Below are positions 47,584 through 64,000 of a stretch of DNA of 64,000 nucleotides, one piece after another. Made by a program: the position numbers and the translations under genes. The notes below the pieces were generated by a model. It had not been told where the DNA came from. It did no database searches and saw only the letters and a list, made by a program, of their open reading frames with translations. The DNA is from Candidatus Pacearchaeota archaeon (GTDB lineage: Archaea > Nanobdellota > Nanobdellia > Pacearchaeales > GW2011-AR1), in assembly GCA_018303845.1 (NCBI GenBank), contig JAGVXH010000004.1, positions 261,165 through 325,164 of the forward strand. The letters run 5' to 3'. Position 1 is the first letter of the stretch. Each line of letters begins with the position of its first letter.

Positions 47584-47901
47584 TTCATTTTTACGTCCAA
47601 ACCATTTAATTAAAATATACCACCTTACCCACAAACTTATAAGTCCTAAAACCATATCAAGCAAATTGCAACTAAGAAATCCCAAACAATAGAAGCCAAC
47701 TTATCAAAATTAGGGCTAACAAAAGAACTAATCCCAATCTTCATCAGTTTCGTAAACGAAAAAAATCAAGAAGAGGCAATCAAAATTTTCAAAACTCTAG
47801 AAATTTCAAAAGAAAGAATCGACACAAAAAACGAAAACAATACCCTAATCCGAGCAGGCAACAAATCATATGACGTAAGCATCGAAGTCATCAACGACAA
47901 A

Positions 47902-50900
47902 ATGTTCCACTACTGCACATGCCCGCATAAAACCGAAAGCAAAGCCTGTGCTCACGCTGGAGCAATCCTCCTATACAAAATGCTAAAAAAAGAAAAAAAC
48001 GAATTCAACTCTAAAGCAAAAACTATTCTAAAAAAACACGAAACAGAAAAAAAGAACCAAGGAGGAATAAACTACTTCAAAGAATTATTTCCAAAAATCA
48101 GCGAAGAAGATAAAAGAAACATAATCTATTTCAACTTTGAAAATTTCAGCGCCACCTCTCAAAGCCTAACACTTCAAAGAGGCGTAGTAAAAAAAGACGG
48201 CTCAAATTCTGCACCTATGAGATTCACAGGAAAAGATTTCGATTTTAAAAAATTAAGAATAAGCAAAGAAGTAAAAGATTTACTAAGCCTAATCATAACA
48301 GAAGAAAACGCAGCAAAAAGTCATTTGGCAGAAGGCTTCTCAAAAGAAAAATTCTATGACTCAAACACAGACCTTATGATGCCAATTTTCAAAGAACTTT
48401 ATTTCAAAGAACAAGAGCTAATCATCGGAGCAACTTTCGCAAAAGAACCTTTCCATATCACATGGGAAGCCACAAGAAATCAAGACAAAACTTACACAAT
48501 AAAACCTTTCTTCGTCTCAGGAAAAAGAAAATGCAATCTAGTTAACATGCAACTCTCAGAGCTAGGATTAAACAGCTTATGGATTTTCGACGACAAAGAA
48601 CGATGTTTTTATTGCCACAAAGAAACCTCAGACTTAAACGCAGTAAAAAACATTATTAGTTTCCCAAAAGAAATAGCCCTAGAAGAAAGCGAATTAAAAA
48701 CATTCTTCTCAAAATACTATCAAAAAATCCTAAATGCTTTTGAATTCAACGTTTCAGACGAACTAAAAAGAGAAGAAAAATCCCTAATCCCACAATCAAA
48801 ACTTTGTCTTGAAAGAACCGGAAATGAAATAAAAATAAATTTAAGGTTTGATTACGGAGGAAGGGAAATAGATTATTTCTCCCCGACAAGAGAATTAATT
48901 TTAGTAAGCGAAGATACAATTTATGATGTTTCTCGTGACATAGAAGAAGAAAATCGAGTTGCAGAAATTCTAAATAAATATGAGATTATAACTTCCAGAA
49001 GATACGATGAGTTCAAGCTCGAAGGAGATTTAATAGATTTCGTAGTGCACACACTTCCAGCTATAACTGAATTGGGAGTAAAAGTTTTAGGAGAAGAAAA
49101 CTTATTCAACTTCAAAGTTTCAAAAAGAAAAGCCAGCATGATGATGGAGGTCAGAAATGATGTAGACTGGTTTAATATTAAAGGAGAAGTCAGATTCGGA
49201 AAAGATTCCGTCCAAATGGAGAGTGTTCTAGAGGCAGTTTTTCAAGGCAAAAGATTTGTAGATTTATTAGATGGAGAAAAAGGAGTAATTCCAAAAGATT
49301 GGATAAGCGCACTTCGATCATATCGCGGGCTTTTCTCCATAGACAATAAAGGAATAAAGTTATCAAAATATCACATGTCAGTTTTAGAAAGCCTAATCCA
49401 ATTATCTCAAAAAACAGATATAGACGCCAAAACAAAAGAAACAGTAGGCAAGTTAAAAAGTTTTGACAAAATTTCTTCAGCGACACTTCCAAAAAACCTA
49501 AATGCAAAACTTCGAGAATACCAAAAAACAGGTTATGATTGGCTAAATTTTCTTCGAGATTATGACTTCAATGGAATCCTGGCAGATGATATGGGACTTG
49601 GAAAAACACTTCAAGCTTTAAGTTTATTACAGAAAATAAAAGAAGAAGGCAAGGCGAAAAACCCATTCTTAGTAGTCGTTCCAACTTCCTTAGTGTTTAA
49701 CTGGAAAAACGAAATAGAAAAATTCACTCCAGGACTAAGCGCCTACATTCATTACAGCGCCACAAGAGAAAAGTCTGAAAAGCCATTTCTAAAAATCCTA
49801 AAAGAAACAGACATAATCATAACTACTTATGGAATTTTAAAAAACGACTTAGCACTTTTTGCAAAGGAAGAATTTGAATACATAATTCTTGACGAAGCAC
49901 ATACGATAAAAAACCCTCAAAGCGTCAACGCGAGAACAGTTTCCGAATTGCAAGGAAAAAACAAATTAGCAATATCAGGAACTCCAATTCAAAACAATCT
50001 GATAGAACTTTGGAGCATATTCAATTTTCTTTCCCCTGGATATCTAGGAACTTATGAATCCTTCAAAGAAAATTTCGTCATTCCAATAGAAGTAGAAAAA
50101 GACAAAACAGTAGCGGGAAACTTAACAAAATTAATCGAACCATTTTTGTTAAGAAGAAACAAAGAGGTCATTGCAGAAGAACTTCCAGAGAAAACAGAAA
50201 TGACATTGAAAAGTGATTTCTCAGAAGAAGAGGCAAAAATATACAATACATGGAAAGATTATTACAGCTCAGAAATATCAAGAAGCATCAAAGACAAAGG
50301 CTTAAACAAATCACGTATGAAAATATTACAAGGACTAACAAAATTAAGACAGCTTAGTCTACATCCAAAAATGATAGATCCAAATTACAAAGGAACAAGC
50401 GGAAAGTTTGACCTTCTAATGATGGAAGTAGAAAAAATATTATCAGAGGGACACAAGGTTTTAGTCTTCTCATCTTTTGTAAAAATGTTAGACATAATCA
50501 AAGAAGATTTAGAAAAGAAAGGGGTAAAATATTCTTATCTTTGCGGAGCTTCCAAAAACCGAGAGCAAATAGTCAAAGAATTCCAAGAGTCAAAATCCCC
50601 TAGACCTTTCTTAATTAGCATAAAAGCCGGAGGTGTAGGAATCAATTTAACATCAGCCGATTATGTCTTTATCGTAGACCCTTGGTGGAACCCAGCAGTA
50701 GAAATGCAAGCAATGGACAGAGCTCATAGAATCGGGCAAACAAAATCAGTTTTCGTTTACAAAATGATAGCAAAAGATTCCATAGAAGAAAAAATCCTAG
50801 ACTTGCAAAAATCCAAAAAGAAATTAGTTGAAGATATAATAACTACTGAAAAAAGTTTATCTAAATCAATTGATGCAGAAACAATAAGGGAAATCTTCGG

Positions 50901-50904
50901 CTAA
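47902..50904 (+). CDS. SWIM zinc-finger / SNF2-family helicase
   Basis: CTCPHKTESKACAHAGAIL (SWIM CxC...CxH), LADDMGLGKT, ILDEAHTIKN and QAMDRAHRIGQ. The frame is open for 84 more codons upstream (47650-47901) without ATG, GTG or TTG. Confidence 0.85.
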   Translation: MFHYCTCPHKTESKACAHAGAILLYKMLKKEKNEFNSKAKTILKKHETEKKNQGGINYFKELFPKISEEDKRNIIYFNFENFSATSQSLTLQRGVVKKDGSNSAPMRFTGKDFDFKKLRISKEVKDLLSLIITEENAAKSHLAEGFSKEKFYDSNTDLMMPIFKELYFKEQELIIGATFAKEPFHITWEATRNQDKTYTIKPFFVSGKRKCNLVNMQLSELGLNSLWIFDDKERCFYCHKETSDLNAVKNIISFPKEIALEESELKTFFSKYYQKILNAFEFNVSDELKREEKSLIPQSKLCLERTGNEIKINLRFDYGGREIDYFSPTRELILVSEDTIYDVSRDIEEENRVAEILNKYEIITSRRYDEFKLEGDLIDFVVHTLPAITELGVKVLGEENLFNFKVSKRKASMMMEVRNDVDWFNIKGEVRFGKDSVQMESVLEAVFQGKRFVDLLDGEKGVIPKDWISALRSYRGLFSIDNKGIKLSKYHMSVLESLIQLSQKTDIDAKTKETVGKLKSFDKISSATLPKNLNAKLREYQKTGYDWLNFLRDYDFNGILADDMGLGKTLQALSLLQKIKEEGKAKNPFLVVVPTSLVFNWKNEIEKFTPGLSAYIHYSATREKSEKPFLKILKETDIIITTYGILKNDLALFAKEEFEYIILDEAHTIKNPQSVNARTVSELQGKNKLAISGTPIQNNLIELWSIFNFLSPGYLGTYESFKENFVIPIEVEKDKTVAGNLTKLIEPFLLRRNKEVIAEELPEKTEMTLKSDFSEEEAKIYNTWKDYYSSEISRSIKDKGLNKSRMKILQGLTKLRQLSLHPKMIDPNYKGTSGKFDLLMMEVEKILSEGHKVLVFSSFVKMLDIIKEDLEKKGVKYSYLCGASKNREQIVKEFQESKSPRPFLISIKAGGVGINLTSADYVFIVDPWWNPAVEMQAMDRAHRIGQTKSVFVYKMIAKDSIEEKILDLQKSKKKLVEDIITTEKSLSKSIDAETIREIFG

Positions 50905-50931
50905 AATAACAATAAAATATCTCAAGTAACC

Positions 50932-51663
50932 ATGACAATACAAAAAACCCAAATCCGAATAAACGACATCATATACACAGTCACAACTCACATCGAGCGC
51001 AGAAGTTCGGTCCGAGTTTCCATTACAAAAACCGGCATCAACATAAGAATCCCTCGCCATCTAAGTTCCTTCCAAAGAGAATCCGAGGGAAAAAGATTTC
51101 TTGATTGGGCAATAGAAAAGATAAAATCAAAACCAACCATAGTCCCAAAAACTCCAATATACCAAAACAATCACCTAATAAGAACACATTCTAAAATCTA
51201 CAAACTCCAAATTGAGCACAGGGATTCAATAAAAAACTTCTCAAAAATTTCCGGTTCTTACATAATTCTTAAAATATCAAACTCTCACGACGAACAAGCC
51301 AAGCAAAAATATATCTCAAAGCAACTTCAAAAACTCCTAGCAAAGAATCACTTAGAAGAATTAAAATCCCGCGTCCATAGACTAAACACAGTCCACGTCA
51401 ATAAGCCAATTAATAAGATATCTTACAAATACACGATATCAAGATGGGGAATTTGCAACTCCACAAAAAAAGAAATCAACATCTCAACAAGACTTCTTTT
51501 AGCTCCAATAGAAATCTTAGAATATGTAATAATCCATGAACTCTGTCATTTGATAGAGCCAAACCATTCCAAAAGATTTTGGAATATAGTAAAGTCTATT
51601 GACCCACAATACAAGCAAAAGAAAAAATGGATAAATGCAAACGGCAGTAGTTTGAATATATAG
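50932..51663 (+). CDS. YgjP-like (DUF45, M48-related) zinc metallopeptidase-fold protein
   Basis: The C-terminal ILEYVIIHELCHLIEPNHSKRFWNIV (HExxH...H) pattern. 243 aa. Confidence 0.75.
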   Translation: MTIQKTQIRINDIIYTVTTHIERRSSVRVSITKTGINIRIPRHLSSFQRESEGKRFLDWAIEKIKSKPTIVPKTPIYQNNHLIRTHSKIYKLQIEHRDSIKNFSKISGSYIILKISNSHDEQAKQKYISKQLQKLLAKNHLEELKSRVHRLNTVHVNKPINKISYKYTISRWGICNSTKKEINISTRLLLAPIEILEYVIIHELCHLIEPNHSKRFWNIVKSIDPQYKQKKKWINANGSSLNI

Positions 51664-51668
51664 AAAAA

Positions 51669-53657
51669 TTATTCTTCTAAAATAAATCCCCGAACCAAAT
51701 TATAAACCTCAGGATACTTTCCCGGCAAAATCATCTTATTATGCAAATATTCAAATCCCTCGCAAGTCCCATTCACATAATAATTATCAGCCCAAGAAAG
51801 ATAAACACTTGAATTTTTCGCAACACCGTCGCCATTTCCTCCAGATGTATCACATCCAATTCCAATTATGTTTTCAACAGGAATCTTTGGGGTCACGCCA
51901 TAGTCCAATTTATTCATAAATAAACTCCTCGCATCCATATCAGCACAATGTTTATCTTCGCCCAAAATAGAGCAACCAGATAAAGTCGTACCATCAATTC
52001 CATGATTCGGAGTTCCAATCATTATCAATTCAGCAACATCATCCTCTCCATAAATCTGAAGATATTTTCTAGAAACCAAGCCGCCCATACTATGCGCGAC
52101 AATAACAACCTTATCCTTCCCTGTCTCTGCCTTAACTTCCTTAATTATCTCATTTAACCTCAGTGCGTAACTGTCCAAATTATCAGATTGCGTCTCAAGG
52201 ACAATAGTCTCTTCGGTGTTTTTGTAAATATCAAAATAATAACTCACCGAAAAAATTATTCTTTCTCTAGTTTTCTTGAAAGTTTCAAAATCATTCCCAC
52301 TCCTCAAAATCAAATCTCCTCCATCTAAAAACCCATCCAAAAACAACTTCTCACGTATCCTTTGCAAATCCCCCAAACTTTTCTCTGCCGAAATGGCACT
52401 ATTAAACGAATGCCCATGAAGCAAAATCACGGGATATTTATCCGAATCTTTCGCACAACTCTCATCACAACAAGTCCCATAAATACCGTCATAACTACAT
52501 ATTAAATCCTCTGGCAAGATAGACAAATTACTTTCATAGCTATCACTAAAGTTAATCGTAATAAATTCAAGAGTGGAAGAATTAATTTTATCAAAAACAA
52601 AATCACTTTCATTTAATTTATCTAGGCTCAAAAAAATCTCATCAGACCTAGCAACCAAAGTTCCAATCTCATGTGTTTTCTTCTTAACATCGATAGAAGA
52701 ATTAAGAGAACTCAAAAAAGCATTATATTCAAAAATCAGCATAGCCACATTACTCTCGTCGTAATCACTCATATTCTTTTCTAAACTCAGCCCAATCAAC
52801 TTCGCCTCTTCTTCTCTAACCAACAAAACAAAATTATTATAATCATCTACCTCAAGTCTCAATCGCAAATTCTCATCAACAAGAGTCCTATTAGAAAGAT
52901 TAACCACATCACTAATCACCCCGCCATATTCATAATGTCTAAACTCATTCAAACTCTCATTCATTTTAACTTCAATCTCAGTTAAATTAATTTTCAAAAG
53001 CCCTTTCGTCAAAGTCCTATTAGACAAAACCTCAAACAAATATTTATTCTCTAAAGCCAAAACATTCAATGCAACAAAATCCTCAATCGTCCTATTCAAC
53101 TTCTCAATAGCTACTTCTCTTAAAACAGATTGCTCTTCGCTGAGATTATAATTTAAAGAAACAATAAAACTTTTCTCAATCGCTTCTCCTGTCGTTTCGC
53201 AAAAACCAGATTCGCTACTCACACAACTTACTCCAAACCTATAAAGTTTTTGCCCCTCACCTTTGTCAGGAGCATAAAGCGTATACTTCTGCGAACTAGG
53301 ATTGGTGACTATTGTATCAAAACTATTTCTATCTAAAACCTCGCCACTGGACAAATCTTTCAAACTATATTCACAACTAGACTTACAAAAAGGATTCGCA
53401 GAAACATAAGTATCAAATTCAATCTCGACGGATTCAGAATTAGACAAAAACAAATCCTGATCACTAGCAGTCAGCCTAACTAGGGCGTCGTTCCCAATCA
53501 ACAAGTTAAAAGCCAAATATATTTTAGTCCCAAATAGAATAACAATTCCAATAACAACAATCAAACCCAAAACATAAAAAAACTTTTTCCGCAAAACAAA
53601 ATATTCCTTTACGTCAATAAAAATCTTTTTCACCGAGCCTTTTTTCACCGATTTCAT
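51669..53657 (-). CDS. membrane-anchored protein with a C-terminal alpha/beta-hydrolase (lipase/PGAP1-like) domain
   Basis: N-terminal TM helix and a long extracytoplasmic region. Then PVILLHGHSF and VVIVAHSMGGLVSRKYL (GxSxG). Confidence 0.65.
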   Translation of the reverse strand: MKSVKKGSVKKIFIDVKEYFVLRKKFFYVLGLIVVIGIVILFGTKIYLAFNLLIGNDALVRLTASDQDLFLSNSESVEIEFDTYVSANPFCKSSCEYSLKDLSSGEVLDRNSFDTIVTNPSSQKYTLYAPDKGEGQKLYRFGVSCVSSESGFCETTGEAIEKSFIVSLNYNLSEEQSVLREVAIEKLNRTIEDFVALNVLALENKYLFEVLSNRTLTKGLLKINLTEIEVKMNESLNEFRHYEYGGVISDVVNLSNRTLVDENLRLRLEVDDYNNFVLLVREEEAKLIGLSLEKNMSDYDESNVAMLIFEYNAFLSSLNSSIDVKKKTHEIGTLVARSDEIFLSLDKLNESDFVFDKINSSTLEFITINFSDSYESNLSILPEDLICSYDGIYGTCCDESCAKDSDKYPVILLHGHSFNSAISAEKSLGDLQRIREKLFLDGFLDGGDLILRSGNDFETFKKTRERIIFSVSYYFDIYKNTEETIVLETQSDNLDSYALRLNEIIKEVKAETGKDKVVIVAHSMGGLVSRKYLQIYGEDDVAELIMIGTPNHGIDGTTLSGCSILGEDKHCADMDARSLFMNKLDYGVTPKIPVENIIGIGCDTSGGNGDGVAKNSSVYLSWADNYYVNGTCEGFEYLHNKMILPGKYPEVYNLVRGFILEE

Positions 53658-53718
53658 TTATTTATAACGAATTGAAACTTTATTAACTTTAACTATATCG
53701 TCAAGAAAAAAGTTAGGC

Positions 53719-55290
53719 CTAGTTTATACGAGCGATAAAGTCCCTAACAATTCCCAAAACCTCTGCCTTTTTTCGTGGAATAAAATTAATCGTTCCAGCA
53801 TTCTTATGCCCGCCACCCTCAACAAAAGCATTCGGCAACTCCTTCCTCAATTCCGCAATCAGTTCATGTGTAGAAAAACCAGACTCATCAGTCGCCCTAA
53901 AAGTCACAGCAGTCGCCATAACCCCAGCAGAAACTAATCGAATCACGCCCTCATTCTTAAGGGAATCATGTAATAATCCGGTAGCTCGACCAGGCTTAGG
54001 GAAAAAACCAAACCCAGGAAAACTCTTATCAATATCAATCGTCTGCAAAGTCACATTCCCTAGAACTTCAACCTCAGCCGCAACTTTACCAATAGCCAAA
54101 CCTTTCCGATCAAGCTCTCGAATATAAGGTGCCATCAATTCAACAAGTTTTTTCTGTTTGTCCCGTGGCTCACCGAATAAAACTTCGACATATTCCCGCG
54201 CTTCCATAAACCGAACCTTCGTTGAAACAAACTCAATAACCAAAGAAATATCCTTAAGCAGTTCCTTATCATATCCCTCCCTTCCAGCAATCGCCAAATA
54301 CTTTTCCATCAAATCATTATTCCCAAGTTCAATCCTGTCGGCATAACCAGCGAGAGCTGGAATCTGGGAAACGTTCTCGACTTTCTCATTAATGAACCTA
54401 GCAATCTCGGCACAAAGCATTCCAGCAGAAATATGAGTTCCAGATTCCCCAACCAAATGTGGATTAATATTAGCTAAAACTTCCGCGCTAATAACATCCT
54501 TCTCCCCAAAATCATGATGGTCAATAACAATAACATCAGCCCCATGAATCCGTGCCTGTTTAACCGCCATCAAATCCTCAACAGAAGAACCATTATCAGC
54601 AATAATAATCAAAGGCATTTTCGCAGAAAACTTCGCAACGTCCCGCAAACTCATAGCAGTATCCTTAATCGAATCCTCAAGTTCATAATAAGGAGCAGTC
54701 GAAGGAGCCCTCTTAAAATATTCCCAAGCAGCTTTAGGTGCACTATGTTGCCTCTCAACTAAAGGCAAAATCGCCCGCTCCAACGCGAACCCAGAACAAT
54801 AGCCATCAGTATCATTATGATGCCTAACAATAATCGGCCGACCCTGAATCACAGCAAGCCTAATTTCTTCAGCCGCCTTCAAAATTGGAGCCCTCAACTT
54901 TTCCAAAATATGATTTTCTAACATAAAATTAACATTAACAACTTTCGCCCTCTCTCTTTGTTGATACGCAATATGCTTCTTCATCGCCTCAACTTCTTCC
55001 CCAACCTTCTTCTTAATCTTCAAAATATTCCCTTCCATCTCACCTTGAAACTCATCAACTCTAATCCAAGCCTCAACAAAATCTCCCTCTACAATTTCAG
55101 GATGAGCTCTAACCCCAGGTGAAACAAATCCTTTCAAAGATAAACTTCCAGTCCCATCAACTATCCCAAAAACAGTCGGACCACCAGTCTGTGCAATTCG
55201 CTCAATCAGTCCCAAAACTACAACTTCCTTTTTCAGAAAATTCTCACCAACATCTCCAATCGGCGTTTGCTTTGCTTTTTCGTATACCAT
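53719..55290 (-). CDS. archaeal RecJ-like DHH-family nuclease (GAN/Cdc45-related) with an N-terminal OB-like segment
   Basis: DHH motifs VRHHNDTDGYCSG, IADNG and VIVIDHHD, and the DHHA1-like C-terminal GGGHKNAG. Confidence 0.75.
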   Translation of the reverse strand: MVYEKAKQTPIGDVGENFLKKEVVVLGLIERIAQTGGPTVFGIVDGTGSLSLKGFVSPGVRAHPEIVEGDFVEAWIRVDEFQGEMEGNILKIKKKVGEEVEAMKKHIAYQQRERAKVVNVNFMLENHILEKLRAPILKAAEEIRLAVIQGRPIIVRHHNDTDGYCSGFALERAILPLVERQHSAPKAAWEYFKRAPSTAPYYELEDSIKDTAMSLRDVAKFSAKMPLIIIADNGSSVEDLMAVKQARIHGADVIVIDHHDFGEKDVISAEVLANINPHLVGESGTHISAGMLCAEIARFINEKVENVSQIPALAGYADRIELGNNDLMEKYLAIAGREGYDKELLKDISLVIEFVSTKVRFMEAREYVEVLFGEPRDKQKKLVELMAPYIRELDRKGLAIGKVAAEVEVLGNVTLQTIDIDKSFPGFGFFPKPGRATGLLHDSLKNEGVIRLVSAGVMATAVTFRATDESGFSTHELIAELRKELPNAFVEGGGHKNAGTINFIPRKKAEVLGIVRDFIARIN

Positions 55291-55406
55291 TTTTATCTGT
55301 AGAATTCGTCCATTTTATACCTGAACACTAACATATTCTTCATTTAATATACCAAAAAAGACTTAAGAGTTTAAAAATCTTCGTAGTAGTAATTCCAAAC
55401 TATTTT

Positions 55407-56057
55407 TTAAATCAAGTTAAACTCCAACACCCGCGAATCATAAGCCACGCCATCTTTCGTAATCACAAAATTATACTTAATGTTACACGTTTTAACATCA
55501 GAAGGAAACGCAAAATAAATAGTCATAGCATCATACCACTCATTCCAATCCTGTCTCCACCGCCCACTAATCATCCCCGTGCTAGCCATCCCTCTCTCAA
55601 TCCAACCTTGAGCAACTTTTGCGCTAACTCCACAATTTCCAACCGAAGTCGGATCAACTGCAAAATTAAAACTAAACTCACTTCCCTCGGGGATCTTTGG
55701 GTTCACATTCTGAACAAGCCAAGCAACTCCATACTTCGTCCCCCTTGAAACATTAATATATCCAGTAGGTGGTAAATAAAAAGCAGTCTTGCCACTCGTC
55801 CCCGCTTGCCTCACAAGTGTAGCTTTAATGTTATCATTCATGTAATCAATATTATAATTTCCAAAGTTAACAGGTTGTGGAACGCTAGGCGTAGGGACAG
55901 GCGCAGGAGCAGCAGCGGGAATCGGCGCAGTATTTTCAGGAGTCTGAATCTCATCAACCGGACTTTTAGGACCATTGCCAACAAATCCAAAACTAAAAAC
56001 CAAAACCAAAACAACAGCCACTCCAACCCCCCAATAAATCATCCTCTTCCTTTCCAT
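55407..56057 (-). CDS. hypothetical secreted or membrane-anchored protein
   Basis: Start placed at MERKRMIYWGVGVAVVLVLVF; the tracked ORF extends to 56156. A Pro/Ala linker is followed by a beta-rich domain. Confidence 0.45.
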   Translation of the reverse strand: MERKRMIYWGVGVAVVLVLVFSFGFVGNGPKSPVDEIQTPENTAPIPAAAPAPVPTPSVPQPVNFGNYNIDYMNDNIKATLVRQAGTSGKTAFYLPPTGYINVSRGTKYGVAWLVQNVNPKIPEGSEFSFNFAVDPTSVGNCGVSAKVAQGWIERGMASTGMISGRWRQDWNEWYDAMTIYFAFPSDVKTCNIKYNFVITKDGVAYDSRVLEFNLI

Positions 56058-56147
56058 ATGTTCTCCAAACAACAAACCAAATATAAACCTTTTCCCGAAC
56101 ATCTTCAAAATATAAAAGAATATAAGTAATAGTTTTTTTAAAATATC

Positions 56148-56372
56148 ATGTTGCAAAAAATAAAAACAACCTATCTAAAATTAGAACAAAAAATTTCATG
56201 CGCCGTGGGAAGAACATATAAAGAAATATACCATTCAGATACACATGGCTCAGGAGGTCTAGATAAAATAATAACCGATTATAACTCTGTGACAGGAGAT
56301 ATCATAAGCAGAGAAATAATATTATCCAAAGAGGCAAGGTCGAAGATATTAAAGGACATTAGGTCATTATAA
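56148..56372 (+). CDS. hypothetical small protein
   Basis: 74 aa ORF only, with no supporting motif. Confidence 0.25.
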   Translation: MLQKIKTTYLKLEQKISCAVGRTYKEIYHSDTHGSGGLDKIITDYNSVTGDIISREIILSKEARSKILKDIRSL

Positions 56373-56451
56373 TTAAACATATAAATCATATTTTTCCCAA
56401 ACTCATTTTAATTAAAATTTCTCTTCAGCAGTCCCAGTAAAGAATTAATAA

Positions 56452-56572
56452 AAAATCCGTGTAATCCGTGTAATCTGCGGCTAAATAATTAACAAAATCC
56501 AAAAACAAAATCTGCGTAATCTGCGTAATCTGCGGCTAAATAATTAACAATCAATCCAAAAAAAATCCGTGC
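56452..56572. repeat. two tandem ~44-nt units (AATCYGYGT x3 + GGCTAAATAATTAACAA) plus a partial third, behind the helicase gene
   Basis: 56452-56495 is aaaatccgtgtaatccgtgtaatctgcggctaaataattaacaa. 56507-56550 is aaaatctgcgtaatctgcgtaatctgcggctaaataattaacaa. 56560-56572 is aaaaatccgtgcc. Confidence 0.95.
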
Positions 56573-56598
56573 CAATTCAAACTCAAGCCCCCTAACAG

Positions 56599-58755
56599 CT
56601 AACCCCTAATCTCAGAATCCCCCCCACTAAAAATCGAAACAATCTCCAAAATCCTCTCCCCATATTTCATCAACTTCTCTGGTCCAATCCCAGAAATCTT
56701 AATCAACTCCTGAGCATTAACTGGCATCATCCGAGCAATTTCATCTAAAGTTGCATTCGGCAAAATAACATAAGGCGGAACACCTCTCTCCTCCGCAACA
56801 ACACTCCTCCAACTCTTTAATTCTCCAACCAACCCCTCATCCGCCTCTTCAAAATCATTCTTACTTTTTACTCCCTGTTCCTTGTCCCTAGCAAGATTAC
56901 GCATCTCATTAGTTATATAATAAGTCGCCTTCTTCGTATGCGTCACAACCAATTCTCTCTTCGCCCTAGAAACCGCAACATAAAACAATCGCCGCTCCTC
57001 TTCTTCCCGGTCATAGTCATCCATCTTCACCATCTCAACAGCAGGATGGTCACTCGCCTTACAAGGAAAATTTTGTTCACTCGCTCCAATTATAAAAACT
57101 CGTCCAGCTTCAAGACCTTTAATCGCATGAATCGTAGCCAAAGTGACCTCTTGTTCCTTGTCTTCCACTCCTTGTTCTCCGCCATTAGAGTCATCCGCTC
57201 TAACCATATGCGCAATACCACGAAGCTTCATCGCCCGACTAAGCTCAAGCAAAATCTTATTCGTCCGAGCCAAAACAAAAACCTTTCCAACCAAATCCGA
57301 ATCCTCAATCTCTCTCAAAACAAATTCTCTCTCCGCATCCTCATCTGCAAAATCCAAAATCCTAATCTTCGCATCACCTTCAAGATGCCCTTCTAAATCC
57401 GGCAACTTCATCTCACGAATAGCATGATTCATAAATTCAACGACCTTAGGCAAACTTCGATAATTCCTCTTCAAATGCACAATCTCAATATTATCCTTAT
57501 CCGAGTTCACCTTCTTCCCAAAATCAGATTCAAAATTCAAAATAAAAGAAACATCACTACCTCTCCATCCAAAAATTGACTGCCGCGGGTCCCCAACCGC
57601 AAAAAGATTCGGCGACTTCAAAAGCCCAATCAATTCAATCTGCAACGCATTAACATCTTGATACTCGTCAATTAAGACATGTTCAAATTTAGGAACCTTG
57701 TCAGGATTCGCCTTCAAAAAATTGACAGCATCAATAATTTGGTCACTATAATCCCGCAAACCCTGAACCTCCATATGCTCTTTCAAGTATCGAGTAATCC
57801 GATAAATCCTCTCCGCATTAACCCGGTCCTTCCCCGCAACATCTCGACTCCAATCATAATCCCTTTTCCCGCTCACCTTAAAATAATCCATCACAGCAAA
57901 ACAATCATTCATGAAAGCATTAGACAATTGCGAGCTAGTCCGAAACTTTTTCTGTCCTGCACTAAAATATTCATCAACCACAACTTCCATATCAAGCCCC
58001 ATCGTAGCAACCGCCATATTCATCGCCAAAATTTTATCGCTATAACTTTGCACCCGAACCGCCCGACCATAAATTTCCGCCCCATGCTTCTGTAAAATCC
58101 TCTCGCAAAAAGAATTAAATGTATGAACTTTCACTCCAAAAATCCCCAAATCATCCAACCTCTTCTTCATCTCTAACCGAGCCTTTCGCGTAAACGTTAT
58201 CGCCAAAATATTCTCAGGCTCAACATTTCGATACTTAACCAGAAATTCAATCCTCTTAGTTAAAACCGTAGTCTTCCCAGTTCCAGCTCCAGCAACACAA
58301 AGCAAATTCCGCGCCCCAGAAACAATCGCCTTTTTCTGCTCGTCATTATACTTCTTCAAAAAATCCCGATACTTCTCAAACCTAATTTTATCCTCTTCCT
58401 CAATCTTACTCTCCGAAAAATCAACTCTATTCCCAAGCCTCTTCGCTTCCAGTGTAGGATGCGTAATTTCATTTCTCCCACGAATCGTCAATTGCAAAAC
58501 TTTGACAAACCTATTATAATCACTCACAACCATCTCAATCATTCCATTACTAATCAACCTATCAATCTCCCCCGCAACTTTTCCTTTATCCCAAGACAAG
58601 CTATCAAAATTATCAAGTTCATCAAGCCTATTCTTACTAATAGATTTATTAGAATAATCTCCAACCAAAAAATCAATCAAAAGTGTCCGCCCCACCTGAA
58701 ACGGCAACTCCATCAACGCTTTCAATATATGTGTATATTCCAAATTCTCTTTCAT
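56599..58755 (-). CDS. UvrD/Rep-family helicase with an N-terminal winged-helix (HTH_40/RQC-like) and a C-terminal HRDC domain
   Basis: CVAGAGTGKTTVL, LIDEYQDVN and RNYRS. The C-terminal RGVPPYVILPNATLDEIARMMPVNAQELIKISGIGPEKLMKYG is HRDC-like. Confidence 0.8.
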   Translation of the reverse strand: MKENLEYTHILKALMELPFQVGRTLLIDFLVGDYSNKSISKNRLDELDNFDSLSWDKGKVAGEIDRLISNGMIEMVVSDYNRFVKVLQLTIRGRNEITHPTLEAKRLGNRVDFSESKIEEEDKIRFEKYRDFLKKYNDEQKKAIVSGARNLLCVAGAGTGKTTVLTKRIEFLVKYRNVEPENILAITFTRKARLEMKKRLDDLGIFGVKVHTFNSFCERILQKHGAEIYGRAVRVQSYSDKILAMNMAVATMGLDMEVVVDEYFSAGQKKFRTSSQLSNAFMNDCFAVMDYFKVSGKRDYDWSRDVAGKDRVNAERIYRITRYLKEHMEVQGLRDYSDQIIDAVNFLKANPDKVPKFEHVLIDEYQDVNALQIELIGLLKSPNLFAVGDPRQSIFGWRGSDVSFILNFESDFGKKVNSDKDNIEIVHLKRNYRSLPKVVEFMNHAIREMKLPDLEGHLEGDAKIRILDFADEDAEREFVLREIEDSDLVGKVFVLARTNKILLELSRAMKLRGIAHMVRADDSNGGEQGVEDKEQEVTLATIHAIKGLEAGRVFIIGASEQNFPCKASDHPAVEMVKMDDYDREEEERRLFYVAVSRAKRELVVTHTKKATYYITNEMRNLARDKEQGVKSKNDFEEADEGLVGELKSWRSVVAEERGVPPYVILPNATLDEIARMMPVNAQELIKISGIGPEKLMKYGERILEIVSIFSGGDSEIRG

Positions 58756-58828
58756 AACAAAGAAAACAGGAGTTCGCTTTTAAGTTTTATTGAGATTGCA
58801 AGGATTTTTTAAAATAAGAATACAAAAT

Positions 58829-59191
58829 TCACCGCCCGTATTTCTTCTTCCTTAGATTATCATAATAAGAAATTCCCCTCTCCAGCAACTCTCTTGCTTC
58901 TGAAGATAAACTTTCCACAATATCATCCCTTATTTTATTTTCTAGTCTAGCAAAACCATCAAAGACAGGACTATATCCAAATTTTCCTCCAAACTTTATT
59001 CCTATTCCATCTTCAGTCAAATATATAACATCCTGGAAAGACTTAATCGCTCCAGAATTAAATCCGTCTTTATCGGGAAATATTTCCCTAATGACCATAC
59101 TAGAATCAACCGCACCTCTTTCTTTATCTAACTCACATGGATAAGAATAAGAATTATATTCAATTTCCCAGCGTCTTTCTCCCAGCAACAT
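58829..59191 (-). CDS. hypothetical protein, paralog of 59196-59573
   Basis: Start placed at MLLGERRWEIEY (Met11 of the tracked ORF). Shares W.(F/I)EY ... (E)(I/Y)FP(D/A) ... LLE..I.YY with the upstream neighbour. Confidence 0.45.
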   Translation of the reverse strand: MLLGERRWEIEYNSYSYPCELDKERGAVDSSMVIREIFPDKDGFNSGAIKSFQDVIYLTEDGIGIKFGGKFGYSPVFDGFARLENKIRDDIVESLSSEARELLERGISYYDNLRKKKYGR

Positions 59192-59195
59192 TTCG

Positions 59196-59573
59196 TTACA
59201 GCCTAACACAATATCTATCATGAGGCTTCCCCTCGGTTTTCAACTCATAATAATCTATTGCAGAAAGTATCAACTCCAAAACTCCAGAAGGCAATTTCTC
59301 AGAGAACGCCGCATTTTGTTTTTTATAAGAAGAAGAAAGATCCTCAAGAACCTCGCTTCGTCCATATTTTTCAATTCCACCGATAATAATGTCTTCGTCT
59401 TTTCTAACAATACTATCCTTAAAAGTAACATCAGTTGCGGGAAAATATTCTAAAACTTTCAAGCTCTTATCTCCACTACTAGAATTATCTGGAAAATATT
59501 CAAACTTCCAAGTAGTCCTTCCCTCGTATTTTACCTCAAAGAAAGCACTAGATTTTCTATTTGTTTTAATCAT
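59196..59573 (-). CDS. hypothetical protein, paralog of 58829-59191
   Basis: 125 aa with the shared motif order described for the downstream paralog. Confidence 0.45.
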   Translation of the reverse strand: MIKTNRKSSAFFEVKYEGRTTWKFEYFPDNSSSGDKSLKVLEYFPATDVTFKDSIVRKDEDIIIGGIEKYGRSEVLEDLSSSYKKQNAAFSEKLPSGVLELILSAIDYYELKTEGKPHDRYCVRL

Positions 59574-59615
59574 CCCAAAAAAATCTAATCACCCTTTTTA
59601 AAAATTTCCCTTTCC

Positions 59616-60539
59616 TCAAATCTTCATCTCAACTCGATTATTATCTTCTTTTAACTCTAAAACCTTATCTGAATAATCCACAGCAAATTCCATCACTTCA
59701 ACCTTTCCATCTAGCAGCATATTCTCAACTCTAAGCGTTCTCCCATAACCAATCTCAATATCACCCAAATCAACCACATCAACAATTTCACCGTCGGCAA
59801 TAACAGTTAAATCAATGCCATCTATTCTCACAAGCCCCTCATTTAAAATAGAAATATTAAAATCCAAATATCTTCCTTGAATCTTTCCATTTACACTTTC
59901 AACTCGCGCGTCCGCCAAAGCCTCAACCAAATAAAGCTCTCTCATAATCTTCCCCATGTCAGGGCTCATTCTTTGCCAGCAATTCGAAGTGTTATACATA
60001 ATATTCCTAATATCTGGAGAATGGTCAAATCCAAAAACATGTCCAAGCTCATGCAAAGCAACAATAGGATACACGCAATCCTCCCCATTATACAAAATCA
60101 CTTTCCCTTCTTCAATCACCTTAAATCCACTCGTGTTAATAATCCTCGACGGACCGCCTTCTCCGGCCGCAAACAACTCATCACCCAATTCAACAAAATC
60201 ATTAGAACATTCAACCTTAATATCAGAACTTCCATTTCCTTCATAAAACGCAATAACTTTAACCTCGCTAGAAAAAATATTAAACGCCGCAACCATATCA
60301 TCTCTTCTCACCTTATCACAATCTTCGTCAATCCAATACGAAATCAAATTATGATTAAACCTCAAATTCTCCGCAAAAATCGGAACCGCACCATAATCAA
60401 CCACAGCTCCAACATTTTTGGGCTCAATATAATTAACCTTCAATTCAATAGGCGCCCTAGGCAAATTATCAAACATCAAAGCAACGCTAAAAATCACCAT
60501 CATAAAAATAATCATCACCGCAGCCACCTTCCAAACCAT
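59616..60539 (-). CDS. membrane-anchored metzincin (matrixin-like) zinc protease with a C-terminal beta-sandwich (CARDB-like) region
   Basis: N-terminal TM helix, then VALHELGHVFGFDHS (HExxHxxGxxH) followed by NIMY (Met-turn). Confidence 0.7.
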   Translation of the reverse strand: MVWKVAAVMIIFMMVIFSVALMFDNLPRAPIELKVNYIEPKNVGAVVDYGAVPIFAENLRFNHNLISYWIDEDCDKVRRDDMVAAFNIFSSEVKVIAFYEGNGSSDIKVECSNDFVELGDELFAAGEGGPSRIINTSGFKVIEEGKVILYNGEDCVYPIVALHELGHVFGFDHSPDIRNIMYNTSNCWQRMSPDMGKIMRELYLVEALADARVESVNGKIQGRYLDFNISILNEGLVRIDGIDLTVIADGEIVDVVDLGDIEIGYGRTLRVENMLLDGKVEVMEFAVDYSDKVLELKEDNNRVEMKI

Positions 60540-60575
60540 AATCCCACAAACAAAAAACCCTATTTATTCTTATCG

Positions 60576-61472
60576 TCAAACAACAAGGGCTTCCAGTGGT
60601 TTCCTTAATTTTTTCCTAGCCCTTTTTTCAGCCATCCGAATTCCTTCAATACCAATCCCGTATTTTTCAGATAATTTCTTAAAAGTAATCCCTCTCCCAT
60701 GACTTTCAATAATATCCACATCCCTTTCAGAAAGATTACAGCTACAAATAACACCCCTAACTTTCTCAACAATATCCAATTCCTCGACACATTTTTCTGG
60801 TCCACAAGCATTATCCCCCAAATAAACACTTTCCCAGGAATCGCCATAAGGATTATCCAAAAATGCAGGACCATTAATATTTCGAGCAGAAGCCATATTT
60901 GTCCCAAGCGCAAGCGCCCCAAGCGCCCCTCTATCCATTCGCTCGCCTCTTTCAAAAATAAAATTCGAGAATAGAGCTTCCTGCAAATTATCCCCATTTT
61001 CAATCGCTCTCTTAACCGCCGATCTAGCTCTTACAAAATCGTTTCTACTCAGTGGTATATCAGTATATTTCATTCCCATATCATACATCCGACTAGCTAC
61101 TTGATATCCAATAAAAGTAGTCATCCCAGATTTCTCAGGATTATAATTATGTAAATTCTCCAATACACAAATAATTCCTTCGGGGACCAATTCCTTCATC
61201 CCTACATTAAACCCCTTAAGAGAAACCCTCCCATTTCCTCCCATTTTCCATCCTCTCCCATGAAGCATCTCCTTCGCAACAACATAAACAAACGACTCAG
61301 ACCTAACAACAACTTCATTTGCAATTTCAATTTGATGAGCAGTCCTTTTACGCAAGTCAAATTTTCCAGCCTTATTAAACTGGTCAGAAGTTATGGACTC
61401 AACATATTCTCGCCCCAAAGAATTCAGTATTTTCCCTTTATCCGAAATAGTATAACTTTCCACCATTAACAA
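60576..61472 (-). CDS. sigma-70-family-like protein
   Basis: ELVPEGIICVLENLHNYNPEKSGMTTFIGYQVASRMYD aligns by eye to region 2 (DLIQEGNIGL..AVEKFDP.KG.KFSTYA.WWIRQAI). LSERDVDIIESHGRGITFKKLSEKYGIGIEGIRMAEKRARKKLR aligns to region 4. Confidence 0.55.
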   Translation of the reverse strand: MLMVESYTISDKGKILNSLGREYVESITSDQFNKAGKFDLRKRTAHQIEIANEVVVRSESFVYVVAKEMLHGRGWKMGGNGRVSLKGFNVGMKELVPEGIICVLENLHNYNPEKSGMTTFIGYQVASRMYDMGMKYTDIPLSRNDFVRARSAVKRAIENGDNLQEALFSNFIFERGERMDRGALGALALGTNMASARNINGPAFLDNPYGDSWESVYLGDNACGPEKCVEELDIVEKVRGVICSCNLSERDVDIIESHGRGITFKKLSEKYGIGIEGIRMAEKRARKKLRKPLEALVV

Positions 61473-61531
61473 TACAAAAAATATTTTATAAAGTTTGTCA
61501 TTGTAATCATTAAAGAGTTATTACAATAAAA

Positions 61532-62440
61532 TTATTCCTTCCTTCCCATAATCCTCTCAATATCTTCAGTCGTCTTCGCTCCAACCAAATCCCCACGCAA
61601 CTTCTTCCCGTCCGCTAACCCCTTCGTGAAATTCATCGCCTGATATTTAACCTGCCGAAAATAGAGCCCATATTTCTTAGCCAATTTCAAATACTCTCCA
61701 AATCCAACCTCGTCCCCCTTTAGTCCGTGTTCGTCCGTGTTCGTCCGTGTGCCATTTTTTAAGAGTTGACCAGATTTATTTTCAAGCCCCAAGAAAATTC
61801 CAGGTCTCCCGATAGCCTCTCGTCCAATCATCACAAAATCAAAATCCCTCAAAATCTTCTCCACATCATTAAGATTGGAAACCCCACTAAAAATAACAGG
61901 CATACTAGCCTTCTCCTTAATCTTCAAAGCAAAATCATAATCAACTTCTCCGCTATACCCCTGACTCAAAGTCCGAGCATGAATACAAACAGCACTCACT
62001 CCAATCTCCTCACAAATCCTCAAAATATCAAAGGCCAAATCACTCTTCCGAATTTTAACAGTCAATGGTTTTCTAGTACAACTTCTCATCACTCTCAAAA
62101 TATCTTCAATTACTTCCAAATCATTTAAACAAGCTCCATGTTTCAATTTCTTAGACAACTTCGACGGACACCCCAAATTAAAATCCCAACCCGAAACCCT
62201 AGAATCATATTCCTTCATAAAACTCTTAATCCCACGAGAAGAATTCCCAAACAACTGCAAAACAGGCTTATCATCTAAATCAAGTTTAGCCTTAGATAAA
62301 GCCGAAGTCATCCCAGTCCAAGTCAACCCACATCCAGCCCGCCTACAAAGCAACCGAAAAGCAATATCATTAGGCTCAAGCATCGGAGCAAGAAAAACTC
62401 TGGCCTTCAATTTCAAATTCCCAAGTCTATAATCCATCAC
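61532..62440 (-). CDS. dus: tRNA-dihydrouridine synthase
   Basis: LAPMLEPNDIAFRLLCRR.G, DFNLGCP, VKIR and IHART motifs. Carries the repeat-derived insert GTRTNTDEHGLKG. Confidence 0.8.
   Translation of the reverse strand: MMDYRLGNLKLKARVFLAPMLEPNDIAFRLLCRRAGCGLTWTGMTSALSKAKLDLDDKPVLQLFGNSSRGIKSFMKEYDSRVSGWDFNLGCPSKLSKKLKHGACLNDLEVIEDILRVMRSCTRKPLTVKIRKSDLAFDILRICEEIGVSAVCIHARTLSQGYSGEVDYDFALKIKEKASMPVIFSGVSNLNDVEKILRDFDFVMIGREAIGRPGIFLGLENKSGQLLKNGTRTNTDEHGLKGDEVGFGEYLKLAKKYGLYFRQVKYQAMNFTKGLADGKKLRGDLVGAKTTEDIERIMGRKE
61721..61753. repeat. (TCGTCCGTGT)-type x3 run, in frame in dus
   Basis: Direct reading gives tagtccgtgttcgtccgtgttcgtccgtgtgcc. Confidence 0.9.
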
Positions 62441-62557
62441 AGATTATCCAAAGGAGACTTTATATTTTTAATTCTAGTTTAACTAACGAGGTTTTCTTGT
62501 CTTTAACGAGAGTTATCCCAAATAAATTTATTAAGTAGTCTAAAAATTATAGATAAT

Positions 62558-63799
62558 ATGATAATCCCAATAATAATTCTAGTTATCGTTCTTATCCTTA
62601 TTGCAATTAGACAAGTTGGCAATATAAAACTTCAGATTTGGCAGATAATGCTTTTCGGAGCAATTGCCGTTTTAATAACAGGTCAAATCTCTCCACTTAA
62701 TGCCTTAAAGTCGGTAAATGTAGACATAATGTTTTTTTTGTTTAGTATGTTTGTCATAGGCGTTGCACTTGAAGAGAGCGGCTACCTTTCTCATCTATCG
62801 TATAAAATATTTGGAAGAGCAAAAAATACAAACCAATTATTATTACTAATTTTATTCGGAATGGGATTTGCGTCGGCACTTCTTATGAATGATACTTTAG
62901 CAATCATAGGAACACCAATGATCATACTTCTCGCCAAAAAACATGGCATTAGTCCAAAGGCTCTTCTAATCGCACTAGCATTTGCAATAACAATTGGTAG
63001 CGTCATGAGTCCCATAGGAAATCCACAAAATTTTCTTATTGCAACACAAGGAAATATCGATAACCCATTTCTGACTTTTTTACAATATTTATTTATGCCA
63101 ACACTAATAAATCTCTTAGCGGCTTTCTTCCTGCTGAAATTTTTTTACAAAAAACAATTTGCAAATGTCTCATTAAACCATTCTCAAGAGCCAATAAAAA
63201 ATCGCACACTTGCAATGTTATCTAAGATGTCGCTTGCCCTCTTGCTAATATTAATATTTATAAAAATTGCAATGACATTTCTAAATATACATCTTGACCT
63301 TAAATTAGTCTATATCGTATTTATAGCAGCACTGCCGATTTTACTATTCAGTAAAGAAAGAATTTCTATAATAAAGAAAATAGATTGGAGCACATTAATA
63401 TTTTTTGCCGCTATGTTTATACTGATGGAGAGTGTTTGGAATACCGGATTTTTTCAATCAACCATAACCACTCTAAACATAAATATTCTTTCAATCCCGA
63501 TAATATTAGTTATTAGTATTTTGTTAAGTCAGTTAATATCAAATGTCCCCTTAGTAGCACTTTACCTGCCAATGCTTTCTCATGCAGGAGCAACAACTAG
63601 GGAGATGATGGTATTGGCCGCCGGAAGCACCATAGCAGGCAATCTTCTTATATTCGGAGCTGCAAGCAATATCATTATAATCCAAAACGCAGAAAAGAAA
63701 TCTGGAGAAACAATAACTTTCCTAGAATTCGCAAAAATAGGGATCCCGATGACAGCAGTTAATCTCTTGATTTACTGGTTATTTTTTATAATAATTTGA
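62558..63799 (+). CDS. ArsB/NhaD/CitMHS-superfamily anion permease
   Basis: 413 aa with about 10-12 TM helices and the duplicated pattern SPIGNPQNFLI / AGNLLIFGAASNIII typical of this permease superfamily. Confidence 0.65.
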   Translation: MIIPIIILVIVLILIAIRQVGNIKLQIWQIMLFGAIAVLITGQISPLNALKSVNVDIMFFLFSMFVIGVALEESGYLSHLSYKIFGRAKNTNQLLLLILFGMGFASALLMNDTLAIIGTPMIILLAKKHGISPKALLIALAFAITIGSVMSPIGNPQNFLIATQGNIDNPFLTFLQYLFMPTLINLLAAFFLLKFFYKKQFANVSLNHSQEPIKNRTLAMLSKMSLALLLILIFIKIAMTFLNIHLDLKLVYIVFIAALPILLFSKERISIIKKIDWSTLIFFAAMFILMESVWNTGFFQSTITTLNINILSIPIILVISILLSQLISNVPLVALYLPMLSHAGATTREMMVLAAGSTIAGNLLIFGAASNIIIIQNAEKKSGETITFLEFAKIGIPMTAVNLLIYWLFFIII

Positions 63800-63847
63800 A
63801 TGGATGGCAATTCTCTAAAGAAATTTTTTAAATTCTGATTTTAAACT

Positions 63848-63913
63848 CCTAATCTCTAATCTCTATCATCTAATCTCTATCATCTAATCTCTAACATCTA
63901 ACCCCTAACCCCT
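63848..63913. repeat. TAATCTC / CTAACCC-type motif run behind a minus-strand stop codon
   Basis: Direct reading gives cctaatctctaatctctatcatctaatctctatcatctaatctctaacatctaacccctaacccct. Confidence 0.9.
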
Positions 63914-64000
63914 CTCCCTCTTCACCGCTCGCCCAATTCTCTCCAAATAAGCCCGCCCAAGCATTGGCAATCCAATTCTAAACTTCTCCTCACAATTTTC
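63905..64000 (-). CDS. C-terminal end of an unidentified gene (runs off right edge)
   Basis: The minus strand reads ENCEEKFRIGLPMLGRAYLERIGRAVKRERG* with the stop at 63905-63907. G/T-rich codon style matches other minus-strand genes. Confidence 0.35.
   Translation of the reverse strand, partial: ENCEEKFRIGLPMLGRAYLERIGRAVKRERG

Follow-up and report, generated by a model that had tools for sequence, protein, structure and literature searches.

What is a sigma factor doing in an archaeon? The question is raised by a 64,000-nt stretch of the genome of a tiny groundwater archaeon of the Candidatus Pacearchaeota (assembly GCA_018303845.1, contig JAGVXH010000004.1, positions 261,165 to 325,164 of the forward strand; hereafter the window, in whose own numbering all coordinates are given), which carries an open reading frame (ORF) resembling bacterial sigma-70 factors. 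Sigma factors on one side, and TBP, TFB, and TFE on the other, form the textbook divide between bacterial transcription and that of archaea and eukaryotes. A preliminary description of this DNA had recognized the resemblance, and had likened the ORF, together with the membrane protease gene and the two small paralogous genes immediately downstream of it, to a sigma/anti-sigma/protease module. A sigma homolog in a DPANN archaeon is in itself not new, because sigma-70 or “rpoS” genes are already reported in the passages on such factors in Castelle et al. (2021; PMC8204110) and in PMC12647753 (Nat Commun 2025), and the intact presence of such a homolog in hundreds of DPANN lineages has been a puzzle since the 2021 report. 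What is new here is that the module is rejected, that an architecture specific to the family is defined, and that the gene is recognized as a recombining accessory cassette within an array of housekeeping genes. The locus narrows the question to a native gene with what appears to be its own promoter, free of an anti-sigma or protease partner, that behaves as a recombining cassette. The gene, its upstream element, and the regions of its predicted product are as follows.

60576 to 61466, minus strand: sigma-70-family gene, 296 amino acids (alternative TTG start at 61472)
61484 to 61492, minus strand: TATA-like box TTTATAAAA, beginning 26 nt upstream of the sigma ATG
Amino acids 1 to 40 of the sigma protein: family-specific N-terminal helix with an LNxLGxxY motif
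Amino acids 43 to 69: region 2.1-like helix
Amino acids 70 to 89: beta-hairpin insertion
Amino acids 90 to 135: regions 2.2–2.4
Amino acids 136 to 190: region 3
Amino acids 191 to 222: region 3.2-like acidic linker
Amino acids 223 to 296: regions 4.1–4.2

The ATG at 61466 is favored over the TTG at 61472 as the start of the sigma gene, and both the gene calls of other assemblies and the homologs concur with this choice. The encoded protein matches Pfam Sigma70_r4 over amino acids 248–291 (E = 1.3e-5; 25.0 bits, gathering score 24.1), and TIGR02937 over amino acids 55–293 (E = 3e-8), the latter with 33.4 bits and thus under the cutoff of 42.9 bits. Neither Sigma70_r2 nor Sigma70_r3 matches the protein by itself. 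A profile made from two sequences, the window protein and a relative 55% identical to it, aligns with Escherichia coli RpoH (8hkc_E) over amino acids 87–295 (E = 8.5e-7); here, amino acids 87–135 align to RpoH region 2, the segment “PEGII..NPEKSGMTTFIG” falls on region 2.2–2.3, and the match to region 4.2 is also backed. When the profile is extended to 39 relatives (see below), it finds SigA/RpoD in the PDB from region 2.2 to the C-terminus (region 4.2) with E = 2e-41. The same 39-sequence alignment yields an AlphaFold2 model with a mean predicted local distance difference test (pLDDT) score of 87.9, and cures the unusable model obtained with a two-sequence alignment (pLDDT 41). All 50 of the 50 best listed Foldseek matches of the predicted fold in the PDB are sigma factors, including those in holoenzyme structures, with ∼300 columns aligned; the template modeling (TM) scores are low, as expected of a flexible multi-domain protein. 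Because the Sigma70_r4 match, the family profile, and the fold matches agree, the ORF at 60576–61466 is, by sequence and predicted fold, a true sigma-70-family protein with similarity far above chance, as the preliminary description had proposed by eye for regions 2 and 4.

The window protein is a divergent member of a DPANN family of ∼300-amino-acid sigma-like proteins. An exhaustive HMMER search of 1.84 billion cluster representatives recovered 246 relatives with E ≤ 1e-3, 40 of which reach E ≤ 1e-10; the majority are about 300 amino acids long and match over their full length; 39 relatives make up the family alignment and profile. Among these 39 aligned members, Sigma70_r4 is found in 35 and Sigma70_r2 in 25, and none is matched by Sigma70_r3 at E ≤ 0.01, although the profile and fold alignments to SigA pass unbroken through region 3. 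Of the relatives scanned with TIGR02937, five typical members (54.6–72.8 bits) and P0003 (44.0 bits) exceed the cutoff, and P0006 (29.4 bits) falls under it. The best models for typical members are the C-terminal ones of RpoD, yet the family scores far under every cutoff of the RpoD and RpoS models (e.g., 115 vs. 354 bits), and the identity of typical members to RpoD from many bacterial phyla is 36–40% over regions 2.2–4.2. Because the RpoD C-terminal models score best, and because of this level of identity, the family is, as judged by sequence, derived from the bacterial primary sigma factor RpoD (regions 2.1 to 4.2), with no identifiable donor.

Compared with sigma factors of groups 1 and 2 (RpoD/SigA and RpoS), the family has the same order of regions 2.1–2.4, 3, and 4.1–4.2 within its ∼300 amino acids. 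It has lost region 1.1, has no non-conserved region, and has gained an N-terminal helix, as well as a hairpin of 15–20 residues inserted between regions 2.1 and 2.2. The first ∼40 residues (W..LN.LG..Y motif) are specific to the family: a profile of the N-terminal 88 residues matched 7 of the 7 archaeal loci tested, and matched bacterial RpoD marginally, at region 2.1. Besides the start methionine, six positions (L17, Y21, Q45, A64, L93, and P110) are each conserved in 90% or more of the 39 members, and the first three of them fall in the N-terminal part. Most members have a nearly canonical region 4.2. In the syntenic sub-clade to which the window protein belongs, the N-terminus and region 2 are best conserved and regions 3–4 least, and the closest relatives keep the region 3.2-like acidic loop with its conserved W (DSW..VYL.D).

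Sigma-70-class genes of DPANN archaea were described as fam00359, “particularly prevalent in Woesearchaeota,” in the sigma passages of Castelle et al. (2021), according to which they occur alongside TBP, TFB, and TFE, mis-binning was excluded, no anti-sigma factors were found, and the mechanism was left open. Compared by description only, the relatives found here likewise occur in contexts of the Woesearchaeota/Pacearchaeota type, and the sub-clade that includes the window protein is unusual in its divergence and has a region 4.2 that is degenerate. The same passages make no mention of insertion into a slot, of presence/absence polymorphism, or of allele replacement (Castelle et al., 2021).

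These last three properties are seen in the immediate surroundings of the gene. Between 56.6 and 62.4 kb the window has six minus-strand ORFs with gaps of 36–73 nt, including the four ORFs of the preliminary description, all of which are present as it described them. The conserved members of this array are the following.

61532 to 62440, minus strand: dihydrouridine synthase (Dus), upstream array member; the sigma gene is inserted downstream of it
59616 to 60539, minus strand: M10 metzincin, 307 amino acids, with an N-terminal hydrophobic anchor and a C-terminal CARDB domain
56599 to 58755, minus strand: UvrD-like helicase with a C-terminal HRDC domain, downstream array member

A search with M10 fetched loci (numbered with the prefix L) from 38 GTDB species genomes, as well as 36 from metagenomes, with some duplicates between the two sets. 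Wherever the contig also includes Dus, M10 is part of a Dus-M10-UvrD array; Dus and M10 abut (−16 to +44 nt) in 27 of the fetched loci, and thus leave the sigma slot empty; M10 and UvrD usually abut as well (4–43 nt) where UvrD adjoins. An ORF of the sigma family lies within 5 kb of M10 in none of the 38 GTDB loci, and near M10 in 2 of the 36 metagenome loci, both of which are re-finds (L001 and L013). The order Dus-sigma-M10-[slot]-UvrD is shared by the window with L001, L008, L012, and L014, whose sigma proteins are 55, 52, 34, and 29% identical to that of the window, respectively; the family members at L010, L015, and L016 have unrelated neighbors, without M10. In a neighbor-joining tree of concatenated Dus, M10, and UvrD (without support values), the sigma-bearing loci fall in one clade, where they are interleaved with the sigma-less loci L017, L056, L057, L061, and L063. 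Five lineages therefore have the gene and equally related ones lack it.

The sequences of the gene and of its neighbors tell different histories. Dus, M10, and UvrD are 60–86% identical between relatives (M10 59–81%), whereas the sigma proteins are 27–55% identical, in an incongruent pattern. The clearest case is that of L008 and L012, which are sisters by their flanks (Dus 82.5%, M10 80.7%, and UvrD 85.6% identical) and have sigma proteins only 35% identical, while the L008 protein is 52% identical to that of the window. At the nucleotide level, the flanks of these two loci are mostly 85–93% identical and the sigma gene 37–63%, and the drop has sharp edges, located ∼45 nt inside the sigma gene and at the gene end. 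By the Nei-Gojobori method, synonymous divergence (dS) is 0.35–0.41 in four flanking genes and 1.28 in the sigma gene, in which nonsynonymous divergence (dN) is 0.67. At four-fold degenerate sites, the flanks differ at 0.19–0.29 and the sigma gene at 0.63 ± 0.08 of positions; since only codons for identical amino acids were counted, artifacts of alignment and selection are removed. The sigma gene exceeds the flanks in silent-site divergence, and its alleles therefore greatly predate the genomes in which they now reside. These comparisons indicate that an allele was replaced by recombination in the L008/L012 pair, rather than that the gene evolved rapidly in place. Divergent alleles would be swapped between lineages via recombination in the conserved flanks. 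The dN/dS ratio of the sigma gene is 0.30–0.55, as compared with 0.09–0.37 for its neighbors, and since it is below 1, the gene is constrained; the ratio is not computable on close relatives, as cluster mates are >99% identical and the next relatives ≤55%. The sigma gene is thus a recombining accessory cassette, lodged in a variable slot that separates Dus from M10 in an otherwise tight array, and is not co-functional with its neighbors.

The cassette is native to the archaeal genome. The markers on which the archaeal character of the window rests were all located, as the preliminary description had them for TFE-alpha, PolB, FEN1, and the tRNA.

10728 to 13247: PolB
14343 to 15368: FEN1
22770 to 24020: Nre
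26490 to 27299: TFE-alpha
47424 to 47583, plus strand: intron-bearing tRNA (Rfam, 44.3 bits)

LeuRS, AlaRS, UvrABC, and an SNF2 helicase are likewise encoded in the window. Codon usage of the sigma gene correlates with that of the pooled window genes at 0.88, and the tetranucleotide composition of the 57–63 kb segment correlates with that of the window at 0.92–0.93 (window mean 0.92). Independent assemblies (ENA, JGI, and Logan) have the same gene order, with contigs reaching 965 kb, and the identical sigma protein recurs on no fewer than 18 contigs (24 read), which represent several samples and assemblers (ENA, JGI, Logan, and NCBI). Contamination or a bacterial/archaeal chimera, which the preliminary description had named as what would refute it, is ruled out for practical purposes by the uniform composition and the repeated independent assembly. 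Other family members also have archaeal hosts: the L016 locus encodes PCNA, prefoldin, and diphthamide synthase, and the L015 locus is named Woesearchaeota. No relative of the window protein was found in GTDB species genomes. To our knowledge, no bacterial core polymerase is known from DPANN archaea, and no family of the bacterial core polymerase is found among the Pfam-scanned ORFs of the 64-kb window (∼35 of 49 presumed genes), which differs in this respect from the hosts of RpoD/SigA and RpoS and has an archaeal transcription apparatus. The latter is carried by DPANN archaea according to the sigma passages of PMC8204110.

The TATA-like box of the sigma gene is kept (AAAGTTTATATATT) in all five sigma-bearing lineages, and the promoter and first codons of the gene are conserved between lineages. 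Across the window genes, TATA-like starts peak at −30 to −11, and the box of the sigma gene lies at this modal, archaeal-type position. The gene would thus be transcribed by the archaeon from its own TATA-box promoter. A scan for promoters of the sigma-70 type in positions 44001–64000 gave 87 matches, as compared with 52 ± 7 in shuffled sequence; this excess was rejected as evidence for sigma promoters, as most of the listed sites lie inside ORFs and the excess looks like an effect of oligonucleotide composition.

What the protein does may be approached from its pattern of conservation. Region 2.2 of bacterial sigma factors binds the clamp coiled-coil of the beta-prime subunit, an element common to all multi-subunit polymerases; in archaea, the clamp coiled-coil is the binding site of TFE and Spt5. 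The reading that we favor, if tentatively, is that the protein is an accessory, gene-specific regulator that would dock on the archaeal RNA polymerase via region 2, and not a general initiation factor. Region 2 and the conserved N-terminal helix would dock on the clamp coiled-coil, region 4 would give the DNA contacts, with a specificity that drifts fast in the sub-clade of the window, and promoter melting would stay with TBP, TFB, and TFE. This reading is proposed because region 2 and the N-terminal helix are conserved and the acidic loop is kept, while region 4 is variable and the residues for melting have been lost. A conserved N-terminus and region 2 with variable regions 3–4 fits a conserved protein-protein contact combined with a variable DNA specificity: the conserved surface is that of region 2 and the new N-terminal helix, and not that of the DNA-reading helix. 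The result is a testable hypothesis of binding to the archaeal polymerase clamp, together with a natural series of alleles, and if the archaeal polymerase is indeed engaged, this would bear on the swapping of initiation factors between the two polymerase lineages.

Several observations weigh against the account given so far. Sigma70_r4 is the sole threshold that the window protein passes, and it does so by a narrow margin. Residues corresponding to E. coli W433, W434, Q437, and T440, which serve recognition and melting of the −10 element, are unconserved in the family, in a further difference from RpoD/SigA and RpoS; only the Y430 position is still aromatic (F), and the W433/W434 dyad is Y/Q in the window protein and variable in the family. 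The core-binding residues Q406 and N409 are variable; in region 2.2, conservation is seen at D403, E407, and G408. In the sub-clade of the window, the recognition helix of region 4.2 is degenerate (IGIEGIRMAE, VTRQRIDKIV, MKHQGVDYYE, etc.). The case for allele replacement comes from one well-resolved sister pair, L008 and L012, and the flanks of the remaining pairs are close to saturation as well. The check for bacterial-type rpoB and rpoC covers the 64 kb of the window.

The loss of the melting residues also fits a protein repurposed as a plain helix-turn-helix (HTH) repressor or activator, which would bind operators via region 4 and use regions 2–3 as a scaffold or for dimerization or ligand sensing, with no contact to RNA polymerase. 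Archaeal regulators are mostly HTH proteins of the bacterial type, and region 4 of the window protein has weak matches to two of them, 8hno_A (E = 0.38) and the Tfx-like model NF003055 (E = 0.007). The similarity to Tfx and to the “archaeal transcription regulator” of PDB 8hno, a bacterial-type HTH akin to sigma region 4 or LuxR, is limited to the C-terminal 50 amino acids; whereas those proteins have a region-4-like domain alone, the window protein has retained the linker and regions 2 and 3 in addition. It is also region 4, on which such a regulator would depend, that is least conserved in the sub-clade, and region 2 and the N-terminus that are most conserved. Furthermore, the region 3.2-like linker, which in bacteria acts only within the polymerase, is kept, and the full three-domain sigma architecture is found in hundreds of cluster representatives. 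A plain HTH regulator is a somewhat unlikely alternative to docking on the polymerase.

The behavior of the gene as a cassette invites another explanation, namely that it is conflict-related or mobile cargo exchanged by viruses or elements, such as a takeover factor of viral origin that the cell has kept, or a decoy against factors of this kind, in an arms race between host and virus or between symbiont and host. The presence/absence polymorphism, the replacement by an old, divergent allele within conserved flanks, and the second variable cargo slot nearby are all consistent with such cargo. Divergent “rpoS” genes, strongly so with respect to known rpoS, have been found in DPANN viruses, one of them in a prophage (PMC12647753; Nat Commun 2025), and could offer a possible route for allele exchange; both they and the window gene are of the sigma-70 family and associated with DPANN archaea. 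Those genes are located on viral contigs, however, whereas the window gene lies among the housekeeping genes of a chromosomal array, away from any viral genes, and the likeness is known by description alone. The window protein has no relative in IMG/VR, where typical family members find only RpoD-like phage sigma factors; among the ORFs of the best 80 of 455 viral loci, the family N-terminus is missing and the profile of the N-terminal 88 residues has no match. The repeats found around the cassette are short and at chance level, with no att-like or terminal repeats, and no integrase or other mobile-element genes were found around the gene. Although one typical member has its best NCBIfam match in the sigma part of MzaA, an anti-phage protein, level with RpoD, and this same part is the sole PADLOC match for relatives of the window protein, PADLOC matches no defense system for the sigma gene, M10, or the slot genes of the window itself. 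Codon usage is wholly host-like, and the promoter and first codons are kept across lineages. Of the mobile or viral module that the preliminary description had considered, the exchange of cassettes thus stands, while viral relatives and mobile-element genes were not found, and mobile or conflict-related cargo appears unlikely. A combination of this explanation with docking on the polymerase can also be imagined, in which DPANN archaea would hold a pool of RpoD-derived cassettes, whose alleles, far older than the genome around them, would be swapped into a fixed chromosomal slot; the proteins would dock on the polymerase clamp and reprogram it, and the turnover would stem from an arms race with hosts or with DPANN viruses, some of which reportedly have “rpoS”-like genes. 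We consider this a rather improbable scenario, but if it is true, no earlier sigma-type factor would be known to work with a polymerase of the archaeal/eukaryotic type.

That the gene is a decaying, functionless relic of an old bacterial transfer, or a chimera of assembly or binning, is very unlikely. Its fast evolution (dN/dS higher than that of the neighbors), the loss of canonical functional residues, and the many related genomes without the gene are in keeping with decay. Nonetheless, the ORFs are intact and full-length in all five syntenic lineages and in hundreds of cluster representatives, motif conservation is structured, the fold is predicted with confidence, dN/dS is below 1, and the promoter is conserved. 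An origin by chimerism is at odds with the recurrence of the identical sequence on contigs of up to 965 kb, the host-like composition, and the archaeal genes that flank the sigma gene on both sides of the contig.

The last explanation concerns the genes downstream of the cassette. The metzincin is, as the preliminary description had it, a membrane-anchored HExxHxxGxxH protease: in addition to a hydrophobic anchor, it has the motif HELGHVFGFDH and an NIMY Met-turn, which are largely invariant in five orthologs (with variation at G and D positions), and it exceeds the thresholds of both Peptidase_M10 (E = 1.6e-7; 31.7 bits vs. 24) and CARDB (E = 1.2e-6). About three residues precede its single N-terminal anchor, which places the protein outside the cytoplasm, without a cytoplasmic domain, and leaves it unable to sequester a sigma factor inside the cell. 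Nearly all of the 38 GTDB genomes with M10 are titled Woesearchaeota, Pacearchaeota, Nanoarchaeota, or plain “archaeon”; the metzincin is a conserved core gene of the Woesearchaeota/Pacearchaeota and no partner of the sigma gene. Between it and UvrD lies a second slot, which in the window is occupied by two genes.

59196 to 59573, minus strand: small protein 1, 125 amino acids, with a TATA-like box at −29
58829 to 59221, minus strand: small protein 2, a paralog of small protein 1, present as a deletion allele

The paralogy of the two proteins, noted previously, is borne out but weak (27% identity, pairwise E = 1e-5), and they have no match in Pfam, NCBIfam, or the PDB sequences and no membrane segment. 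In L001 the slot holds a homolog of the window paralogs, in L008 an unrelated 101-amino-acid ORF (12000–12305), and in L012 a HIT-like ORF of 149 amino acids (9970–10419), and in L014 it is empty. The Dus-M10 slot is similarly variable, as in L017 it is filled by an unrelated 224-amino-acid ORF with no known domain (4291–4965). Small accessory genes seem to have a hotspot in the Dus-M10-UvrD array.

A module in which the metzincin would free the sigma factor from an anti-sigma factor is scarcely tenable: modules of extracytoplasmic function (ECF) sigma factors, anti-sigma factors, and RseP-type proteases share with the locus a superficial layout, in which a sigma gene is followed by the gene of a membrane-associated protease, here on the same strand with gaps of 36–42 nt and adjacent in five lineages even where sigma identity is as low as 27%, but the window protein is RpoD-like and not of the ECF type, the protease is an extracytoplasmic M10 metzincin with extracellular catalytic and CARDB domains rather than an intramembrane M50 protease, no transmembrane anti-sigma protein with a cytoplasmic sigma-binding domain is encoded at the locus, every gene is preceded by a TATA-like box or gap of its own, M10 is kept beside Dus and UvrD without a sigma gene, which accompanies it in none of the 38 GTDB loci and in only two re-found loci among the 36 from metagenomes, distant members of the sigma family have no M10 neighbors, the small proteins are replaced or absent in other lineages, and the disparity between M10 and sigma identities speaks against co-evolution.

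Within the second slot, the window differs from other assemblies of the same population by a deletion.

59183 to 59184: deletion junction, at which 107 bp are missing (L002, 5284–5390)

These 107 bp are present in L002 and L003 and missing in the window, and the remainder of the 660-nt alignment is identical; L004 and L006 have a longer gene call for small protein 2. Lost with the deletion are a TATA-like sequence between the two small genes and the start native to small protein 2, which in the window begins at an ATG within the end of small protein 1. In the other assemblies that cover the slot, small protein 2 has 138–145 amino acids and a start of its own. The deletion may be a real variant in the population or an error of assembly or curation.

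Some further observations were made at the same loci. Metzincin orthologs from loci L017–L090 share long invariant stretches, e.g., LFAAGEGGPSRIINTSGFK. The contig of L014 (GCA_013166765.1, JABKBV010000001.1, 569 kb) is labeled “Methanococcoides sp. SA1” by NCBI. Its Dus-sigma-M10-UvrD order is the same as in the window, and its proteins are 62–73% identical to those of the window. This locus looks like that of a DPANN relative and not of a methanogen, and the record may be mislabeled or may come from a co-culture.

Elsewhere in the window, the tRNA at 47424–47583 is 160 nt long by Rfam and is missed by ARAGORN, in keeping with a long intron that may be non-canonical. GC skew is about −0.4 in stretches of minus-strand genes, and only −0.02 to −0.16 in those of plus-strand genes (e.g., 46001–52000). 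Codon usage of plus-strand genes correlates with the pooled usage at 0.31–0.50, and that of the minus-strand genes near the sigma gene at 0.72–0.88. This contrast in skew and codon usage suggests a strong mutational bias between replication strands, on top of purine loading of the coding strands. Finally, the UvrB homolog (37585–40227, minus strand, 880 amino acids) contains a Ser_hydrolase domain of the alpha/beta-hydrolase type at amino acids 485–632 (Pfam E = 1.2e-9), which is flanked by the UvrB interaction domain on one side and the C-terminal helicase domain on the other, and is an unusual insertion in a repair helicase.

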